Sequence record: PP968062.1
DNA length: 64,000 nt
Source of the DNA: Pseudomonas phage HPP-Temi
Strand: one strand, 5' to 3'
The notes under the pieces are model-generated. The model worked only from the letters and a program-made list of their open reading frames with translations, had not been told where the DNA came from and made no database searches. Made by a program: the position numbers and the translations under genes. Shown one piece after another: positions 1-19,794 of this stretch; position 1 is the stretch's first letter, and each line of letters begins with the position of its first letter.

Positions 1-435
1 TTTGATCATGTCGTCCCAAGTTGCATCCAGGAACTGGAACCAACCAGTAGCCGTAGACGTGCCTGCTTTGACGAGATAATCGAATGCCGATTCAATGGAA
101 GCAAATGTAGCCAGCAATCGAGGTTCGACTCCGGTCATTGCTCCTACCGCATTCAGTGTGGGCATTGCAGCAGCCCGAGATTTGTTAGCAGCCGGTTTAG
201 GAATAGCTTCCCATTTAGCAGGAACTTGTGCAGAAGAGCTCAGTTCAGCCAGAGTTGCAGGCCCAACCTTTCCGTCAACACCCAGACCCCGAGAGGTTTG
301 GAAATCACGAACAGCTTTCTCTGTATCTCCACCGAAGATTCCGTCAGTGCTAACTGCGTATCCTGCGACCCGAAGTTTCATTTGTAGATCTTCCACAGCA
401 GAGCCGCGGTCGCCACGTTTGAGTACAGTACCCAT
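1..435 (-). CDS. Endolysin, phiKZ gp144-like (N-terminal peptidoglycan-binding domain + lytic transglycosylase); 3' part runs off the window start
   Basis: Manual minus-strand translation from the ATG at 435..433 gives MGTVLKRGDRGSAVEDLQMKLRVAGYAVSTDGIFGGDTEKAVRDFQTSRGLGVDGKVGPATLAEL...ANKSRAAAMPTLNAVGAMTGVEPRLLATFASIESAFDYLVKAGTSTATGWFQFLDATW. This follows remembered phiKZ gp144 almost motif for motif (ANKSRAAATPVMNAV...LLTFASIESAFDY...ATGWFQFL). The + strand ORF 95..454 is its antisense artifact. Confidence 0.85.
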   Translation of the reverse strand, partial: MGTVLKRGDRGSAVEDLQMKLRVAGYAVSTDGIFGGDTEKAVRDFQTSRGLGVDGKVGPATLAELSSSAQVPAKWEAIPKPAANKSRAAAMPTLNAVGAMTGVEPRLLATFASIESAFDYLVKAGTSTATGWFQFLDATWDDMIK

Positions 436-450
436 GTCTGTCTCCAGTAA

Positions 451-984
451 TTAATGTTCCAATTCTCGAATTACTCCATCTTCCATCAGACGGTAACCAC
501 CATCTTCCAGGAGACGAGCATATTGGTTGCCTTCTACCATTTCGACAGTAATCATAGTCGAACCGTAGTAAGCGTAACTACCAGTCATCGCGACGAGTTC
601 ATATTGGAACACGTCGTCTTTTGTATTGATAACAGTGGTAGAGAAGGATAGATCGTCCGGACCGAAAGTCATCTTACGGGAGCGGTTGATCTCTTCTGCG
701 ATGGCCGCAGGTGTAGCCACCCCAGATAGCTTAATGGACGGATTAGGTCCAAGGCAGTCAGGGTGAGACAGTTCCAGACGACGATAAACGAACCAGTCTT
801 TGAGACTGGCTTTATTATCGATCATCTCGATATAAGTACGTCCCGGAACACCCGAAGTCGGACTGAAGAACATGTCTTCAAAGTTTACGAATTCGTCTTG
901 AATGTTCTTATGCTTAGACGTTTCCCGAATCAGACGGCACAGGGCCGCACGAGACGGGAGGTTATAAGGAAAACGATCGCTCAT
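451..984 (-). CDS. Hypothetical protein (177 aa) between endolysin and membrane protein; no TM segment
   Basis: Long ORF in the ORF-dense minus strand; no recognisable motifs. Confidence 0.5.
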   Translation of the reverse strand: MSDRFPYNLPSRAALCRLIRETSKHKNIQDEFVNFEDMFFSPTSGVPGRTYIEMIDNKASLKDWFVYRRLELSHPDCLGPNPSIKLSGVATPAAIAEEINRSRKMTFGPDDLSFSTTVINTKDDVFQYELVAMTGSYAYYGSTMITVEMVEGNQYARLLEDGGYRLMEDGVIRELEH

Positions 985-1074
985 TGTTAAACCCTCAATT
1001 GTGGTTTACAAAATTTACTTAACCCACATAGCATTATAAAAGCCCCTCCAATTAAGGAGGGGCTAATATTATTG

Positions 1075-1518
1075 TTACTGAGTAGAAATTACCATCTTTA
1101 AGATCTCAATGAGACCAAGACCTAGGGTCTTAAAGATATCAGCAACTTCACTACTCATCGGTCCGTCTGTATTGATAACGCTTACAACAACACCAGTGGA
1201 CAGAATAGCAAGCAAAGCACTTGCAGTCAAAATGGAACTGCGGTAAGTATCACTAGCTCGATGACCAGTGTATTCCTTTTCCAGTAACACGTTCTGTTTG
1301 CTAAGATCAGACAGCGAATAGATCTCTGTCAGAACTTCATCAGCAGTTGTATTACCGTCAACACGTGCACTACCATCGGCATGCAACATACCGTTCAGGT
1401 ACGCTACGATTTGACGATAGTTAGGAGCCTTCGACAAAGGCTTATTGCCCATGTCACTTAGTATTTGTTCTAGAGTCATAGCTTCTCTCCATCTCCGACT
1501 GTTTTGTATCCCAGTCAC
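1075..1518 (-). CDS. Hypothetical membrane protein with C-terminal TM helix (possible holin/antiholin-like lysis component); start uncertain (1518, 1479 or 1452)
   Basis: C-terminal hydrophobic stretch ILTASALLAILSTGVVVSVI...LGLGLIEIL. Sits between the spanins and the endolysin. The internal Met at 1452 lies 1 nt after the o-spanin stop. Confidence 0.5.
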   Translation of the reverse strand: MTGIQNSRRWREAMTLEQILSDMGNKPLSKAPNYRQIVAYLNGMLHADGSARVDGNTTADEVLTEIYSLSDLSKQNVLLEKEYTGHRASDTYRSSILTASALLAILSTGVVVSVINTDGPMSSEVADIFKTLGLGLIEILKMVISTQ

Positions 1519-1870
1519 GGAGCTTCTCGATTTGTAGATTACACGAACCGAGATAATCGGTTTGGAGTAGCCAGTGATCAGTCATCAGTAGGAAGCGTGC
1601 TTCCCAAGGATCCGTGATACCAGCGACCTTATACCGATCTGGAGCTTTGATGAGGTCATCAGCTGATGGCGGAGGAGCTACGTAGCAAAGTTGTTTGAAG
1701 CTACTTGGTACCGCACTGCGCGTCCAGTCGTTTGGCTTTGCAGTAGTGCTCGTGCATCCTGTTAGCAAGGGTGACAAGAGCAACATCATCAGTAACACCG
1801 CTACTAGTTTCAGCGGTGGAGGTGGGATTTGACCGAATTGGTTCTTCCCTAGCTTTTTCCACAGGGACAT
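1454..1870 (-). CDS. Outer-membrane spanin (o-spanin) lipoprotein, overlapping the i-spanin gene in another frame
   Basis: From the internal Met: MSLWKKLGKNQFGQIPPPPLKLVAVLLMMLLLSPLLTGC. Positively charged N-region, hydrophobic core, lipobox L-T-G-C; proline-rich mature part. Starts inside the i-spanin ORF and extends past it (overlapped architecture). Confidence 0.6.
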   Translation of the reverse strand: MSLWKKLGKNQFGQIPPPPLKLVAVLLMMLLLSPLLTGCTSTTAKPNDWTRSAVPSSFKQLCYVAPPPSADDLIKAPDRYKVAGITDPWEARFLLMTDHWLLQTDYLGSCNLQIEKLRDWDTKQSEMERSYDSRTNTK

Positions 1871-2207
1871 CTTTTTCAGTAGGCCACTTGACCCCTGTTT
1901 GTCCGGATAAGTTAATGTACTCATCAATCACTCCTGCTCGTGATTGTTCTAGCTCTCTCAGCTCATCGACTTTTTGAGTGGTATATTGACTTACGGTTTC
2001 GTCAGTGATGGCAGCAGACTTACCTTGCATTTCCACTTTGACTTCTAGTTGACTATTCTTTTCAACTAGAGCGCCATTGTGAACAAGCTCATCAGTATAC
2101 TGGTTATAGAAGAACCACAGTCCAAGCCCACCGGTGATAACTACACCGATAAACACCCAATTAAACCACTTGATGTTTTTTAACCAGTTGAACATATTAC
2201 CTCTCAC
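1701..2207 (-). CDS. Inner-membrane spanin (i-spanin): N-terminal TM + coiled-coil periplasmic domain
   Basis: N-terminal TM WFNWVFIGVVITGGLGLWFFY, then a charged helical region (ELRELEQSRAG...). The o-spanin is embedded/overlapped; adjacent to the lysis genes. Confidence 0.6.
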   Translation of the reverse strand: MRGNMFNWLKNIKWFNWVFIGVVITGGLGLWFFYNQYTDELVHNGALVEKNSQLEVKVEMQGKSAAITDETVSQYTTQKVDELRELEQSRAGVIDEYINLSGQTGVKWPTEKDVPVEKAREEPIRSNPTSTAETSSGVTDDVALVTLANRMHEHYCKAKRLDAQCGTK

Positions 2208-2774
2208 CTAGAACAACTGTGTAAGGAAGTAGTATCCGATTGCTACGGCATCGATGGAGTGTTCGTCCAGTTGATTATGATCAACCTCACCCCATACAAC
2301 ATCAGTTCTACTTACTAGTGCACGTCGTACGTCTTCTTTATCCGTACCCTTAATCTTCTTCATACCCACATTAGTCTTAACCGTTGTAGGGTCTACCATG
2401 TAAAGCGGTATAAAGGGATCGTACTCAAAAAGAGCACTTCGTATCACAGCAACACATTCCACGAGGGCAGCAAAGCTTGTAGCGAATCTACCTAAGTAGT
2501 TAGATTCTACTATAACTGCGTGTGGACGATGTGTCCTTAAGAAGTCTAGTATCAAATCTCGCATGATCATCAAGCGGACAACTCGACTACCATGCAATTC
2601 CCCAAACGTTGTATAGTCAGGGTGCGTATCTCTAAGAACGGAAGTGTAAGCTGTTTTAACATTCACGCCGACATTCTTAAAGTCGTGTTCCAGCAGAGCC
2701 TGACCCAAGTTGGAAGAACCTGGGTCAAACGATGCTACACGAAATGGTTCATCGCTCTTAGGCACCTGCAACAT
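2208..2774 (-). CDS. RuvC-like Holliday junction resolvase
   Basis: RNase H-fold resolvase motifs: SFDPGSSNLG (first catalytic Asp region), VIVESNY (Glu), DEHSIDAVAIGYYF (C-terminal Asp/His). Length 188 aa. Confidence 0.65.
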   Translation of the reverse strand: MLQVPKSDEPFRVASFDPGSSNLGQALLEHDFKNVGVNVKTAYTSVLRDTHPDYTTFGELHGSRVVRLMIMRDLILDFLRTHRPHAVIVESNYLGRFATSFAALVECVAVIRSALFEYDPFIPLYMVDPTTVKTNVGMKKIKGTDKEDVRRALVSRTDVVWGEVDHNQLDEHSIDAVAIGYYFLTQLF

Positions 2775-2784
2775 AACTAAGTCC

Positions 2785-3681
2785 TTATACGAACTTAGCT
2801 ACGTTTACAGCCTTGTCACCAAGAGTCGGTTCAACGCCGCCGATATCGAAAGTCAGGTTCAGACCGTTCGAGTTATAACCAATCGGGTGGTTAGTAGCGA
2901 TGTGTACGTTTACTTGGCAAGCGATTACTTCGAGATACTGGAACGAACCGCCTGAACCAGCAGGTGCATCAACCTTACGGTCTACACCAGAGCACAGACC
3001 AATTTCCGAGATGATCGGAGAACGAGTCGATGCAGTACGGATACGGTGAGCGTTAGTGATCTCGATGATATCTTCAGCAGACAAGCTTACCTTAACGATA
3101 GCCGATGCAGAGATGTTCTTGTTCGAGCCAATAACAGTGCCGTTGTTCGAGATTGCTGGAGGAACAGGGTTGAGGTCATCAACTGTCGGAGTGTACGGCT
3201 TCGGTGTAGGGATACCGTTGATTACTTCGATTTCCAGAAGCTGAGGTTGCACACCAGTAACGTTGATTCGTAAACCGTAGTAAGCGATGTAGTTCTTACC
3301 ATTATGGGATTCAGGAACCCGCAGGCAGAAACGATCACGCTGGGCCGCTGGAAGATCGTCATTGACTTCACGGAGTACGAAAGGGATGTGGTTATACAGT
3401 GCAGCATGGTTGGAGCGGTGAATACGGTTCTCTACTTCGTCAGAGCCGTCAGCAGCTTTAACAGTGTAGTGACCCATGTTACCGATTACCATGTAGCGGA
3501 CGTTCGGGATTTCACCAGCAGCTGGGGTAATACCATTCTGTACGCCGAACTTCTCGTTAAGAGTAGTGTGAGCGATTACACGGAACGGAGATAGACCGAG
3601 ATACTTGGTGGTTTGCAGATACGATGCATAGCACGTACGTACTACGTTGATAATCTGCTGATCGATAGGGTTGCTAGCCAT
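2785..3681 (-). CDS. Hypothetical protein (298 aa)
   Basis: Long ORF with coding-like composition; function not recognisable. Confidence 0.5.
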
Positions 3682-18478: not shown

Positions 18479-19357
18479 ATGTACATCACGAGAGACTACC
18501 TCCAGTCTACTCCTTGGACATCCATCATTGACATGATTAATGATGCTTGTTTTACCCAGCTGTTTCCGGGTAGTACCAAGCTTGAGAAGTTCGAACCTTT
18601 GAATGGGACCAAGACTCGTATTGTCATTAGTGTTAATCGCAGTGAGGCTCCCGGCAATCTGTTGCCGGAAGTCCCGCTCGATACTTATACGTACGATAGA
18701 CTGGATCTAACTACGTTCTTCCGTCAAACTCAAGTTCTGGATATTTCCGGGATTGATGTTCCATTCTCCTCGATGGATATCGTAGAGAAGCTATCGGAGT
18801 TGAACAACATTGTTTTTGATGTGGATGACTTCGAACACACTGAGTATAATGTCTTCAATCAAGAGTTCATTCTACGGGCTAACAAAGAGTCTCTACGTTT
18901 CGTGGGGTTCTTAAGAGTACGTCTTATCAATACAATCCGTGTTGATCTTTCTGTACAATCCAAGGTTGAATTCCCTACCGTAGGTAAACCAGACAACGTT
19001 ACTGCTGGTGACGTTACTCTAATCAATGGGACCTACTACATCACTGGTTATGACTTCTCTGCACATAGAGAATACCTACGTCATCAGACTAAGGCTGGTA
19101 CACATCCAGATCCTAAGAAGATGGCAGCTATTCTCGCTGAGGTGACGAAGAAGCCTTGGACTGCGGTAAAGACACCAGCTTCGCACAACATCGCTTATAC
19201 AGAAGAATTCGGGGTATTAAAGTATCGCGTCATTTATAACGGTGTCGTACTTCCACGCTTCACTAAGCGGACTGATATTCAAAACGTTCTAGTCATCGAA
19301 CTGCACAAGACTCTGTGTCAAGATGTGGTTGGTGAAATTCGTATTCACTATAACTAG
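18479..19357 (+). CDS. Hypothetical protein (292 aa)
   Basis: Tightly coupled to the upstream gene (start 3 nt after its stop). Confidence 0.55.
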   Translation: MYITRDYLQSTPWTSIIDMINDACFTQLFPGSTKLEKFEPLNGTKTRIVISVNRSEAPGNLLPEVPLDTYTYDRLDLTTFFRQTQVLDISGIDVPFSSMDIVEKLSELNNIVFDVDDFEHTEYNVFNQEFILRANKESLRFVGFLRVRLINTIRVDLSVQSKVEFPTVGKPDNVTAGDVTLINGTYYITGYDFSAHREYLRHQTKAGTHPDPKKMAAILAEVTKKPWTAVKTPASHNIAYTEEFGVLKYRVIYNGVVLPRFTKRTDIQNVLVIELHKTLCQDVVGEIRIHYN

Positions 19358-19359
19358 GA

Positions 19360-19794
19360 GTGATTATGCACGTATCAAACATGCGGGTTAAACTACTCCA
19401 GCAGTTTAGTCTACAGAACAAACTAGAACCCGCGATTCGACCTGAAGATGTTATCTGGACAAACATTGAAATCTGGTTAGAGAATGGTAATAACTCAAGA
19501 GCTACCATTCAAGCTCTGGCAAGTAGTAATCATTTCAAAGGACAGCGTACTATCAATTTCAATCGATACAGAATCGAAGAAGCATTGCGTGGCGTTGTTA
19601 TTCCCGGAAAACGTTCTGACTACTCGACTATCCACGATGTAGTTAAAGTACTGCGGGATAAGGTTACTGCACCAGTAGATACCGAAGAATTCCTTGATGG
19701 TCCTCTTGTTGGTAACACGGTTATTCTGAAGCCGACTATTCGCTCCATGGCGTACATTCCTACGTCGCAGATCGAACTAAGCTTCGCTGAATAA
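19360..19794 (+). CDS. Hypothetical protein (144 aa)
   Basis: Tightly coupled; followed by an A-run and a GC hairpin. Confidence 0.55.
   Translation: MIMHVSNMRVKLLQQFSLQNKLEPAIRPEDVIWTNIEIWLENGNNSRATIQALASSNHFKGQRTINFNRYRIEEALRGVVIPGKRSDYSTIHDVVKVLRDKVTAPVDTEEFLDGPLVGNTVILKPTIRSMAYIPTSQIELSFAE

Follow-up and report, generated by a model that had tools for sequence, protein, structure and literature searches.

Organization of the locus

The window analysed here (the whole 64,000-nucleotide stretch of Pseudomonas phage HPP-Temi, PP968062.1) opens with five colinear genes on the minus strand of positions 1-2207, in the order i-spanin, o-spanin, holin, a 177-aa protein and the N-terminal part of an endolysin, all named here by homology. 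These genes, the spacer that divides them and the neighbouring gene are:

1..435, minus strand: N-terminal 145 codons of a predicted gp144-type endolysin (PF01471, 64.2 bits; 3bkh_A, which is phiKZ gp144, E 7.6e-40; 56% identity to gp144)
451..984, minus strand: soluble 177-aa protein, ortholog of phiKZ gp143 (50% identity over the full length, E 2e-57)
985..1074, minus strand: putative regulatory spacer, with a terminator-like hairpin at 1041-1064, then TTTATAATGCTATGTGG with a TATG motif, then the 5'UTR of the regulator gene
1075..1479, minus strand: predicted class IIIb holin of 134 aa, ortholog of phiKZ gp142 (33% identity over 132 residues, E 5e-23; phrog_14484)
1454..1870 (138-aa precursor) or 1454..1924 (156 aa), minus strand, +1 frame: predicted o-spanin, ortholog of phiKZ gp141.1 (55% identity, E 8.7e-39)
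1701..2195, minus strand: predicted i-spanin of 164 aa, ortholog of phiKZ gp141 (phrog_7584 'Rz-like spanin', 2.9e-38; 31% identity, E 1.6e-17)
2208..2774, minus strand: predicted RuvC-like resolvase, ortholog of phiKZ gp140 (phrog_159, 1.7e-32; 58% identity)

The five products match phiKZ gp141, gp141.1, gp142, gp143 and gp144 colinearly (31, 55, 33, 50 and 56% identity, respectively; E values from 1.6e-17 to 2e-57) and are their positional orthologs. PHROG labels are consistent with this assignment; in NCBIfam, four of the five proteins lack a model. At the nucleotide level the window is about 87% identical to the Pawinskivirus-like phages PS119XW, PA1C, BRkr and others. The synteny of the cassette is retained in 14 relatives and, in the comparison of gene order around gp144 homologs that the initial annotation had proposed, the order from gp137 to gp145 is preserved across ten genomes of eight genera. 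The cassette is flanked by baseplate genes (gp139 on one side, gp145/146 on the other), and the RuvC-like resolvase gene that lies directly upstream of the i-spanin is not a lysis gene.

We show here how the genes are ordered, what their topology signals are, that a lipobox and conserved cysteines are present, and that each phiKZ protein has its homolog. With a probability that we put at about 90%, judging from sequence, positions 1-2207 (minus strand) form the multigene lysis cassette of a phiKZ-like (Pawinskivirus-related) Pseudomonas jumbo phage, gene-for-gene orthologous to gp141-gp144. Such a cassette is already known: the spanin pairs were catalogued in a 2018 census (Kongari et al., 2018; PMC6139136), and the whole phiKZ set was tested in 2026 by lambda complementation, which identified an i-spanin, an o-spanin, a class IIIb holin, a lysis regulator and an endolysin, and a five-gene phiKZ clone that lyses both E. 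coli and P. aeruginosa was described (Manohar et al., Sci Rep 2026; PMC12894885). The finding is therefore not new. In phiKZ Tn-seq, orf142 and orf144 are essential and orf143 is dispensable, tolerating transposon insertions. Each functional call made on these genes in the initial annotation agrees with the experimentally characterised phiKZ cassette and with the homology reported here; its remark that spanin pairs are rarely annotated in phiKZ-like phages is outdated, given the 2018 census and the 'Rz-like spanin' labels in RefSeq and PHROGs.

The predicted spanin genes

The i-spanin ORF (1701-2207) encodes one N-terminal hydrophobic span, FNWVFIGVVITGGLGLWFF, at residues 11-29, where the Kyte-Doolittle profile has its peak of 1.73 with no second peak elsewhere, giving the single N-terminal TMD of a type II protein. 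After this span come a periplasmic domain predicted to be helical, a linker that varies, and a C-terminal YC...C motif, whose cysteines, Cys152 and Cys161, are conserved in the alignment. The AF2 model places helices at residues 3-46, 65-100 and 134-154; since its confidence is low (overall pLDDT 60.7, about 90 over the TMD and about 50 for the helices at 65-100 and 134-154), it serves for rough helix positions only. The identity of the protein had been recognised in the initial annotation, which took the whole of 1701-2207 as the gene; translation probably starts at the conserved ATG 2195 rather than at the upstream GTG 2207, because the GTG sits within the Shine-Dalgarno stretch GAGAGG and 'MF' is the common N-terminus in most relatives. 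The i-spanin has no match in Pfam, the Rz/Rz1 models included, and 'Rz-like' in PHROGs is a functional label, not membership of the lambda Rz sequence family.

The absence of a periplasmic coiled coil had been put forward as grounds for rejecting the i-spanin. A home-made heptad score gave no coiled-coil signal above shuffles in either the window i-spanin or phiKZ gp141, and did give such a signal for lambda Rz. The crude test thus came out negative, and it is not a valid refutation, because Pepcoil likewise finds 0 coiled coils in the phiKZ and 201phi2-1 i-spanins (PMC6139136 supplement) and gp141, together with gp141.1, complements lambda RzamRz1am (PMC12894885). Since none is detectable in the functional gp141 either, the coiled coil was dropped as a spanin criterion.

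A second ORF, 1454-1927 from stop to stop, opens within the i-spanin ORF in the +1 frame and continues 247 nt beyond the i-spanin stop, the arrangement described in the initial annotation. It overlaps the i-spanin by 170 nt if translated from ATG 1870 or by 224 nt from ATG 1924, and its final 26 nt overlap the holin start. The sequence contains the lipobox LLTG/C that had been noted, preceded by a 15-residue hydrophobic run and followed by TST at residues +2 to +4; the mature protein would have 100 aa with 7 Pro and 3 Cys. Of the two proline runs also pointed out there, PPPP lies within the leader, and would therefore go with the removed signal peptide, and PPP within the mature part. Profile matches were found to phrog_456 (1.4e-7) and phrog_24791 (2.3e-28), along with a weak one to Pfam LysC (E 4e-4, 20.6 bits against a 27-bit cut-off).

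Could this ORF be a chance product of the alternate frame, with a coincidental lipobox? ATG 1870 has no Shine-Dalgarno sequence and the ORF is frequently missing or truncated in GenBank records, as such a product might be; yet the alternate-frame ORF for a predicted lipoprotein is open in 14 of 14 related genomes from 8 genera, at identities down to 32%, and across the 11 aligned genomes three Cys, among them that of the lipobox, never vary. The family also shares the motifs EAxxLxM and QT, the window protein is 55% identical to the functional gp141.1, and over bases 1519-1700 this frame is the only covering ORF of at least 40 aa. We consider a chance origin vanishingly improbable: because it is open in the 14 related genomes with the lipobox Cys and the two invariant Cys, the ORF is, by its conservation, beyond chance and is best read as the o-spanin. 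Both predicted partners thus carry conserved cysteines expected in the periplasm, two beyond the lipid Cys in the o-spanin and Cys152/Cys161 in the i-spanin.

The start of the o-spanin is ambiguous from the sequence. ATG 1870, the start proposed in the initial annotation, exists and has no Shine-Dalgarno sequence, whereas its rival ATG 1924 is preceded by AGGAG at a distance of 6 nt and occurs in 7 of 7 genomes. A cluster of GTG and ATG codons near 1798-1786 could supply a third possible N-terminus. As a start chosen by conservation, ATG 1870 fails, being ATA in 3 of the 6 closest relatives. With 38 or 56 residues ahead of the Cys, either leader would exceed the usual length of a lipoprotein signal peptide. 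PROSITE-type lipoprotein patterns usually place the Cys at position 15-35. Applied by hand, the pattern {DERK}6-[LIVMFWSTAG]2-[LIVMFYSTAGCQ]-[AGS]-C fits MLLLSPLLTGC, but with the Cys at precursor position 39 or 57.

The predicted holin gene and the downstream spacer

The ORF at 1075-1518 encodes a single TMD, ILTASALLAILSTGVVVSV, near the C-terminal third, seen as the one hydropathy peak (2.22). Its start is assigned to the conserved ATG 1479, not to the upstream GTG, because the N-terminus is conserved (MTLE in 8 of 11 genomes, MTLQ or MKxS in the remainder) and GGAGA lies upstream; the product previously described as a 147-aa holin or antiholin candidate with a single C-terminal TM thus keeps its TMD and resolves to a probable holin of the gp142 type, with a length of 134 aa. 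Its layout, conserved in 11 genomes, consists of an N-domain of about 80 residues, predicted to be cytoplasmic, the TMD at residues 83-101 of 134 and an amphipathic C-tail of about 33 residues. An N-in orientation is suggested by the flanking charges, counted by eye. By homology and topology, the 1075-1479 product is thus predicted to be a class IIIb holin like gp142, which is N-in with a large cytoplasmic N-domain, complements lambda Sam, is triggered by DNP and permeabilises the membrane lethally in a timed manner (PMC12894885). The i-spanin and the holin are, as a counterpoint to the cassette reading, only 31-33% identical to their phiKZ counterparts.

Between the holin and the 177-aa protein gene, a terminator scan and folding identified an intrinsic-terminator-like hairpin at 1041-1064 (dG -22.4, z -3.8), with compensatory changes in 7 of 8 pairs. 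The hairpin and the TATG motif occur in 10 of 11 genomes, the exception being Noxifer, and the spacer is 98.9% identical to that of relatives as against 82-93% for the flanking genes. TATG is the phiKZ late-promoter consensus (PMC4666361). In phiKZ, the TSS reported upstream of orf139 is followed by none until the one upstream of orf143. A scan for sigma-70 promoters remained at background, and the spacer motif TATAATGCTATGTRG was not enriched elsewhere in the window (3 matches versus 2.3 expected), so that at this length it is not a general promoter consensus. The late transcript of the spanins and the holin, which probably also carries the RuvC-like resolvase gene, appears to end at the conserved terminator, with the regulator starting from the conserved TATG late promoter at about 1028. 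The endolysin, 15 nt downstream of the regulator, would probably be transcribed from this promoter as well.

The 177-aa protein and the DUF7941 fold

The 451-984 product had been described as a soluble protein of unknown function. Hydropathy analysis found no TMD or hydrophobic span (maximum 0.71), and the protein, which has no signal peptide, is predicted by homology to be a regulator of the gp143 type; phiKZ gp143 is a cytoplasmic, holin-specific lysis regulator that makes triggering occur about 10 min earlier and needs the holin N-domain (PMC12894885). The protein consists of a stand-alone DUF7941-like N-module and a conserved C-terminal triple 8-residue repeat, RLLEDGxx. The PF25613 (DUF7941) profile scores 15.3 bits on it (E 0.014), below the 27-bit gathering cut-off, and 10 of 10 family members tested match in the same region, sub-threshold for Pfam, with a best E of 3.4e-9; some database homologs hold a precomputed PF25613 assignment. 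In hhalign, the family aligns with phiKZ gp127 at 70% probability (E 4e-5). Foldseek with the AF2 model (pLDDT 87.6) returned gp127 (9xqd_0) as the sole significant PDB match (E 5.3e-7, probability 1.00, TM 0.56/0.65, rmsd 3.9 over 159 columns), the next having an E of 0.018. Pairwise BLASTP of gp126 and gp127 against the 177-aa protein was not significant, so the kinship is visible at the profile and fold level only. A PDB sequence search with phiKZ gp143 gave no match, and the family profile found only a weak one in the PDB (9gb2_M, 'Triplex 2 protein', E 0.0038). According to the model, the 177-aa protein has the fold of the DUF7941 baseplate-filament proteins, bona fide paralogs of which are encoded elsewhere in the window (18479-19794).

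This fold raises the question of whether the 177-aa protein, perhaps with its neighbours, is primarily a virion structural protein. Its stand-alone DUF7941 module would then belong to the peripheral-baseplate filament network and serve host recognition, and its effect on holin timing would be a secondary or moonlighting function. The match of all ten family members to DUF7941, the alignment to gp127 and the fact that this solved baseplate protein is the only significant PDB match all point in this direction, as do the location of the cassette between baseplate genes and the BFVD search, in which several of 75 matches are chimallivirus proteins with names such as virion structural, tail or tail-fiber protein. 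A Goslar preprint places gp143 among the phiKZ DUF7941 proteins, such proteins forming filaments, and in 201phi2-1 both gp228 and gp226-227 carry the note 'identified as virion protein by mass spectrometry'; in CsCl-purified jumbo phage, however, this method detects non-virion assemblies as well. Moreover, phiKZ gp143 acts in trans to change when the holin triggers, an effect that requires the holin N-domain, orf143 tolerates transposon insertions, a gp143 chain is present in no solved phiKZ virion entry, whereas gp127, gp139 and gp144 are, and the window protein itself scores under the Pfam cut-off. A primarily structural role therefore seems to us unlikely, if worth taking seriously, and we favour the lysis regulator. 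Independently of this question, the 201phi2-1 homologs of the i-spanin, the holin and the regulator carry annotations as virion proteins detected by mass spectrometry; this and the baseplate-type fold of the regulator are counterpoints to the cassette reading.

The two roles might also be combined in a gp143-type regulator that is a stand-alone DUF7941 module truly incorporated into the virion, being at once a component of the particle and a timer that binds the holin. We regard this as distinctly unlikely. If it were true, a free cytoplasmic pool drained by virion assembly would couple lysis timing to morphogenesis, and the triple RLLEDGxx tail would correspond to the linker by which DUF7941 proteins dock head-to-tail, each on the N-domain of another.

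The endolysin

The predicted endolysin gene runs off the left edge of the window, and the completeness of the cassette lies beyond the window's sequence; full-length homologs in close relatives have 260 aa. The initial annotation's gp144-type endolysin is borne out by a PG_binding_1 domain (PF01471) at residues 10-65 and by the start of an SLT domain, only the first 50 or so residues of which (about 97-145) lie inside the window, giving a weak match (E 0.017) and aligning with 3bkh (phiKZ gp144). The segment FASIESAFDY is identical to that of phiKZ, and the position that our numbering of the phiKZ sequence places at Glu115, the catalytic residue of gp144, is conserved.

Enzymes of this type might serve as virion-associated peptidoglycan hydrolases for entry rather than as lysis endolysins, in which case the cluster would fall short of a complete lysis cassette. 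Indeed, gp144 is modelled in the phiKZ virion structure (PDB 9xps, 9xps_S) and described as six copies in a 'whisker ring' of the neck, and PHROG matches include the tail, baseplate and head categories. Against this, orf144 is essential, the five-gene phiKZ clone that lyses E. coli and P. aeruginosa contains gp144, and the holin releases soluble endolysin (PMC12894885), making a role restricted to entry very unlikely in our view. A dual virion and lysis role of the enzyme is possible, and its function as the lysis endolysin would remain.

Proposed model of lysis

We infer every functional step of lysis by this cassette from its orthologs in phiKZ, which have been tested. [quoted passage not shown] The soluble endolysin (a peptidoglycan-binding domain and a lytic transglycosylase) would then reach the wall and degrade it, freeing the spanin complexes, in which the i-spanin of the inner membrane is paired with the lipoprotein o-spanin of the outer membrane. 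These complexes, presumably joined via their C-terminal periplasmic parts and stabilised by disulfides, would destroy the outer membrane, probably through fusion with the inner membrane.

Implications for annotation

Genes labelled 'virion structural protein' or 'hypothetical protein' in records of Pawinskivirus-like and other phiKZ-like phages can be relabelled, by homology, as i-spanin, o-spanin, holin, lysis regulator and endolysin. The o-spanin is usually absent from these records or truncated, its ORF often going unannotated in GenBank. For the biology, our analysis goes no further than the 2018 census and the 2026 study of phiKZ, except in the link between the regulator and DUF7941: comparisons of structure and of profiles independently support placing the lysis regulator in the baseplate-filament fold. 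Two recent papers approach this question from opposite sides and are unreconciled.

Comparison with known systems

The window spanins share the architecture of P2 LysB/LysC (PMC6139136): the i-spanin has its TMD at the N-terminus, the o-spanin, a predicted lipoprotein, begins within the i-spanin gene in the +1 frame and ends past it, and both partners have periplasmic cysteines. Neither LysB/LysC nor lambda Rz/Rz1 has significant sequence homology to them, the weak LysC match aside, and they differ from overlapped spanins such as LysB/LysC in the long o-spanin (mature 100 aa) with only 7% Pro and in having no predicted coiled coil. The holin is predicted to resemble T4 holin T with its antiholins RI/RIII (class III, lysis inhibition) as a single-TMD N-in/C-out holin timed by a soluble partner. 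There is no sequence similarity between the two holins, however; the large regulatory domain is periplasmic in T4 and predicted to be cytoplasmic here, and the DUF7941-like fold of the window regulator is unrelated to RI or RIII. With the DUF7941 (PF25613) baseplate-filament proteins (phiKZ gp126/gp127, Goslar gp22/gp23), the 177-aa protein shares the N-terminal globular module; it differs from them in its sub-gathering Pfam score and in a conserved triple RLLEDGxx tail of its own, and its phiKZ ortholog gp143 alters the timing of the holin and appears in none of the solved virion models.

The closest parallel is phiKZ itself (PMC12894885), although the window phage belongs to another genus, closest to Pawinskivirus at about 87% nucleotide identity. 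In the 2018 census (Kongari et al., PMC6139136 supplement), phiKZ and 201phi2-1 have overlapped two-component spanins in the +1 frame, which form singleton families. The lipobox is LLTGC in the window phage and LLNGC in phiKZ, whose o-spanin has a 20-residue signal peptide from a dedicated ATG; the absence of this ATG in the window phage accounts for its leader of 38 or 56 residues. The gap between the regulator and the endolysin is 61 nt in phiKZ and only 15 nt here, so the window endolysin probably has no promoter of its own. The two loci have in common five genes in one order, with each protein homologous at 31-56% identity, the +1-frame o-spanin with a mature form of 100 aa in both, the 26-nt o-spanin/holin overlap, the terminator and TATG spacer ahead of the regulator gene, and the flanking genes, including the gp140 RuvC-like gene upstream.

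Gene content and orthology to the phiKZ lysis cassette

Every gene between positions 1 and 4800 of the window lies on the minus strand. Five of them, at 1-2207, had been read in the initial annotation as a lysis cassette with an overlapped spanin pair; their description was accurate, since our recomputed ORFs, frames, TMDs, hydropathy and domains match the features reported. BLASTP of the five products against phiKZ gp141, the 120-aa gp141.1, gp142, gp143 and gp144 gave colinear matches.

Genes of the lysis region (window coordinates, strand, feature) and BLASTP matches to phiKZ
2785-3681, minus: DUF7208 protein, first in transcription order
2208-2774, minus: RuvC-like resolvase, second in transcription order
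1701-2207, minus: i-spanin ORF, single N-terminal hydrophobic span; gp141, 31% identity, E 1.6e-17
1454-1927 (stop-to-stop), minus: o-spanin ORF, +1 frame, contains ...LLMMLLLSPLLTGC; gp141.1, 55% identity, E 8.7e-39
1075-1518, minus: holin ORF, one TMD; gp142, 33% identity, E 5e-23
451-984, minus: 177-aa ORF, soluble; gp143, 50% identity, E 2e-57
1-435, minus: endolysin, first 145 codons, PG_binding_1 and start of SLT domain; gp144, 56% identity, E 1.6e-49

The lysis interpretation was also right, the orthologous genes having been defined experimentally in phiKZ (Manohar, Wan, Ganser, Sharp and Young, Sci Rep 2026; PMC12894885). In that study, gp141/gp141.1 complemented a lambda RzamRz1am lysogen and gp142 complemented lambda Sam; gp142, which is triggered prematurely by DNP, was named a class IIIb holin (one TMD, N-in, large cytoplasmic domain), and the five-gene phiKZ clone lysed both E. 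coli and P. aeruginosa. PHROGs labels the i-spanin 'Rz-like spanin' (2.9e-38), a label that the o-spanin matches weakly (1.4e-7), and both the holin and the 177-aa protein 'virion structural protein'.

The window shares about 87% nucleotide identity with the Pseudomonas jumbo phages BRkr, PS119XW (genus Pawinskivirus), PA1C, HHBS36_1, phiHQ and phiLBG22, and its source is thus a phiKZ-like phage related to these but distinct from them. The gp137-gp145 order is conserved in HHBS36_1, PA1C, phiKZ, PhiPA3, 201phi2-1, Phabio, Psa21, Noxifer, RVTF4 and Viktualia. The DUF7208 protein (Pfam score 373 bits) is orthologous to phiKZ gp139, a modelled component of the solved phiKZ baseplate (PDB 9xpg, 9xqd), so the cassette sits between baseplate and tail genes; it probably shares a late transcript with this baseplate gene and the RuvC-like resolvase. 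ARAGORN found no tRNA or tmRNA genes in window 1-64000.

Start sites of the spanins and holin

ATG 2195 is the most likely i-spanin start, judging from its context: GTG 2207, directly following the RuvC stop, is part of a GAGAGG located 5 nt before this ATG, and the resulting N-terminal 'MF' is common to most relatives in the alignment. At its C-terminus the protein has a conserved YC...C motif. Coiled-coil character could be demonstrated neither for this protein nor for its functional phiKZ counterpart, and for that reason this outcome is no refutation of the spanin assignment. Translation of the holin begins at ATG 1479, with an N-terminal 'MTLE' in 8 of 11 genomes and MTLQ or MKxS in the remainder.

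The o-spanin start had been placed at ATG 1870 (codon 20), which gives a 38-residue leader and has no Shine-Dalgarno sequence. We compared leaders (window 1786-1927, minus strand) in seven genomes, the window and its six closest relatives. Codon 20 is ATG in four of the seven and ATA in three of the six relatives; codon 28, eight codons 3' of 1870, is ATG in six genomes and AAG in the window. The relatives with ATA at 1870 use, or at least possess, the codon-28 ATG that the window has lost. ATG 1924 (codon 2), preceded by AGGAG 6 nt upstream, is present in all seven and would give a 56-residue leader; the i-spanin motif VIDEY, itself conserved, also forces this codon. In-frame leader ATGs turn over among very close relatives, and in GenBank records the o-spanin gene is either left out or annotated in shortened form (44-110 aa).

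The holin-regulator spacer

The spacer at 985-1074, from the holin stop to the start of the gp143-type regulator (minus strand), shows the highest conservation in the region: its 90 nt are 98.9% identical to Pawinskivirus-like genomes, while the flanking genes reach 82-93%. It carries a GC-rich 9-bp hairpin (1041-1064; dG -22.4, z -3.8) followed by TTTATAATGCTATGTGG, a layout found in 10 of 11 genomes examined, Noxifer being the exception. [quoted passage not shown] The hairpin is terminator-like, and we infer two transcripts here: a late one that finishes with the spanins and holin, and another that opens with the regulator and probably includes the endolysin, only 15 nt downstream. A phiKZ Tn-seq preprint places transcription starts 5' of orf139, orf143 and orf144.

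The 177-aa protein: lysis regulator or baseplate module

In phiKZ, holin triggering occurs about 10 min earlier with gp143 in trans, an effect abolished by deletion of the holin N-terminal domain, and AlphaFold 3 predicts a gp142-N/gp143 heterodimer (PMC12894885). The 177-aa protein may also serve as a structural part of the virion. Database labels and annotation notes read 'virion structural protein', and the 201phi2-1 homologs of the i-spanin, holin and regulator all carry a note of mass-spectrometric detection in virions. A 2026 Goslar virion preprint lists phiKZ gp143 among predicted proteins of the DUF7941 family (PF25613), which it shows to assemble into filaments joined to the peripheral baseplate, and describes gp144 as a component of the neck 'whisker ring'. 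The 177-aa protein itself matches PF25613 weakly (E 0.014, 15.3 bits, below the cut-off of 27), and all ten family members tested match the same region of the profile (best E 3.4e-9); when an alignment of 47 family sequences was compared with gp127, hhalign gave 70% probability (E 4e-5) in the same register. Its AF2 model (pLDDT 87.6, pTM 0.77) has a single significant PDB match, 9xqd_0 (E 5.3e-7, TM 0.56/0.65; next best, E 0.018), which is the phiKZ gp127 chain of the outer peripheral baseplate. Among the model's 75 BFVD matches are several chimallivirus proteins named as virion structural, tail or tail-fiber. The family profile also matches PDB 9gb2_M ('gp66 - Triplex 2 protein') weakly (E 0.0038, residues 60-152).

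Two distant paralogs of the regulator, both clear DUF7941 proteins by Pfam, lie in the same window:
18479-19357, plus: gp127 homolog, 72 bits
19360-19794, plus: gp126 homolog, 26 bits

Residues 150-177 of the regulator (451-530, minus) form three tandem 8-residue repeats (RLLEDGGY / RLMEDGVI / RELEH), modelled less confidently (pLDDT 72-78), in which R157, E160, R165, E168, G170, R173 and E176 are invariant across 10 genomes. By analogy with the linker of DUF7941 filament proteins, they might be a docking peptide.

Against a virion role, however, a gp143 chain is absent from every solved phiKZ virion entry, whereas gp127, gp139 and gp144 are present; orf143 is dispensable in the Tn-seq preprint, orf142 and orf144 being essential; and contaminating assemblies occur in jumbo-phage virion preparations. 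We conclude that the 177-aa protein is a DUF7941-fold paralog, the activity tested in phiKZ being holin regulation.

Comparison with the phiKZ cassette

The observation of a lysis cassette is confirmed and its interpretation supported. Spanin pairs are less novel in such phages than the initial annotation supposed: a 2018 census entered both phiKZ and 201phi2-1 as overlapped two-component spanins, with the phiKZ i-spanin at 144486-144993 and the o-spanin at 144877-145240 (120 aa, frame +1) (PMC6139136). Given this census and the 2026 experiments, the cassette is already known, as the ortholog of an experimentally defined one; its phage shares about 87% identity with sequenced phages. Its practical value lies in improved annotation of the cassette genes, and it also draws attention to the two identities, lysis regulator and baseplate module, that have yet to be reconciled for gp143-type proteins. 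Across 11 genomes the o-spanin lipid Cys is invariant, as are two other Cys and the motifs EAxxLxM and QT. The phiKZ o-spanin has its own short-leader start (MKLTQKK...), which is absent in the window; the mature protein is 100 aa in both phages.
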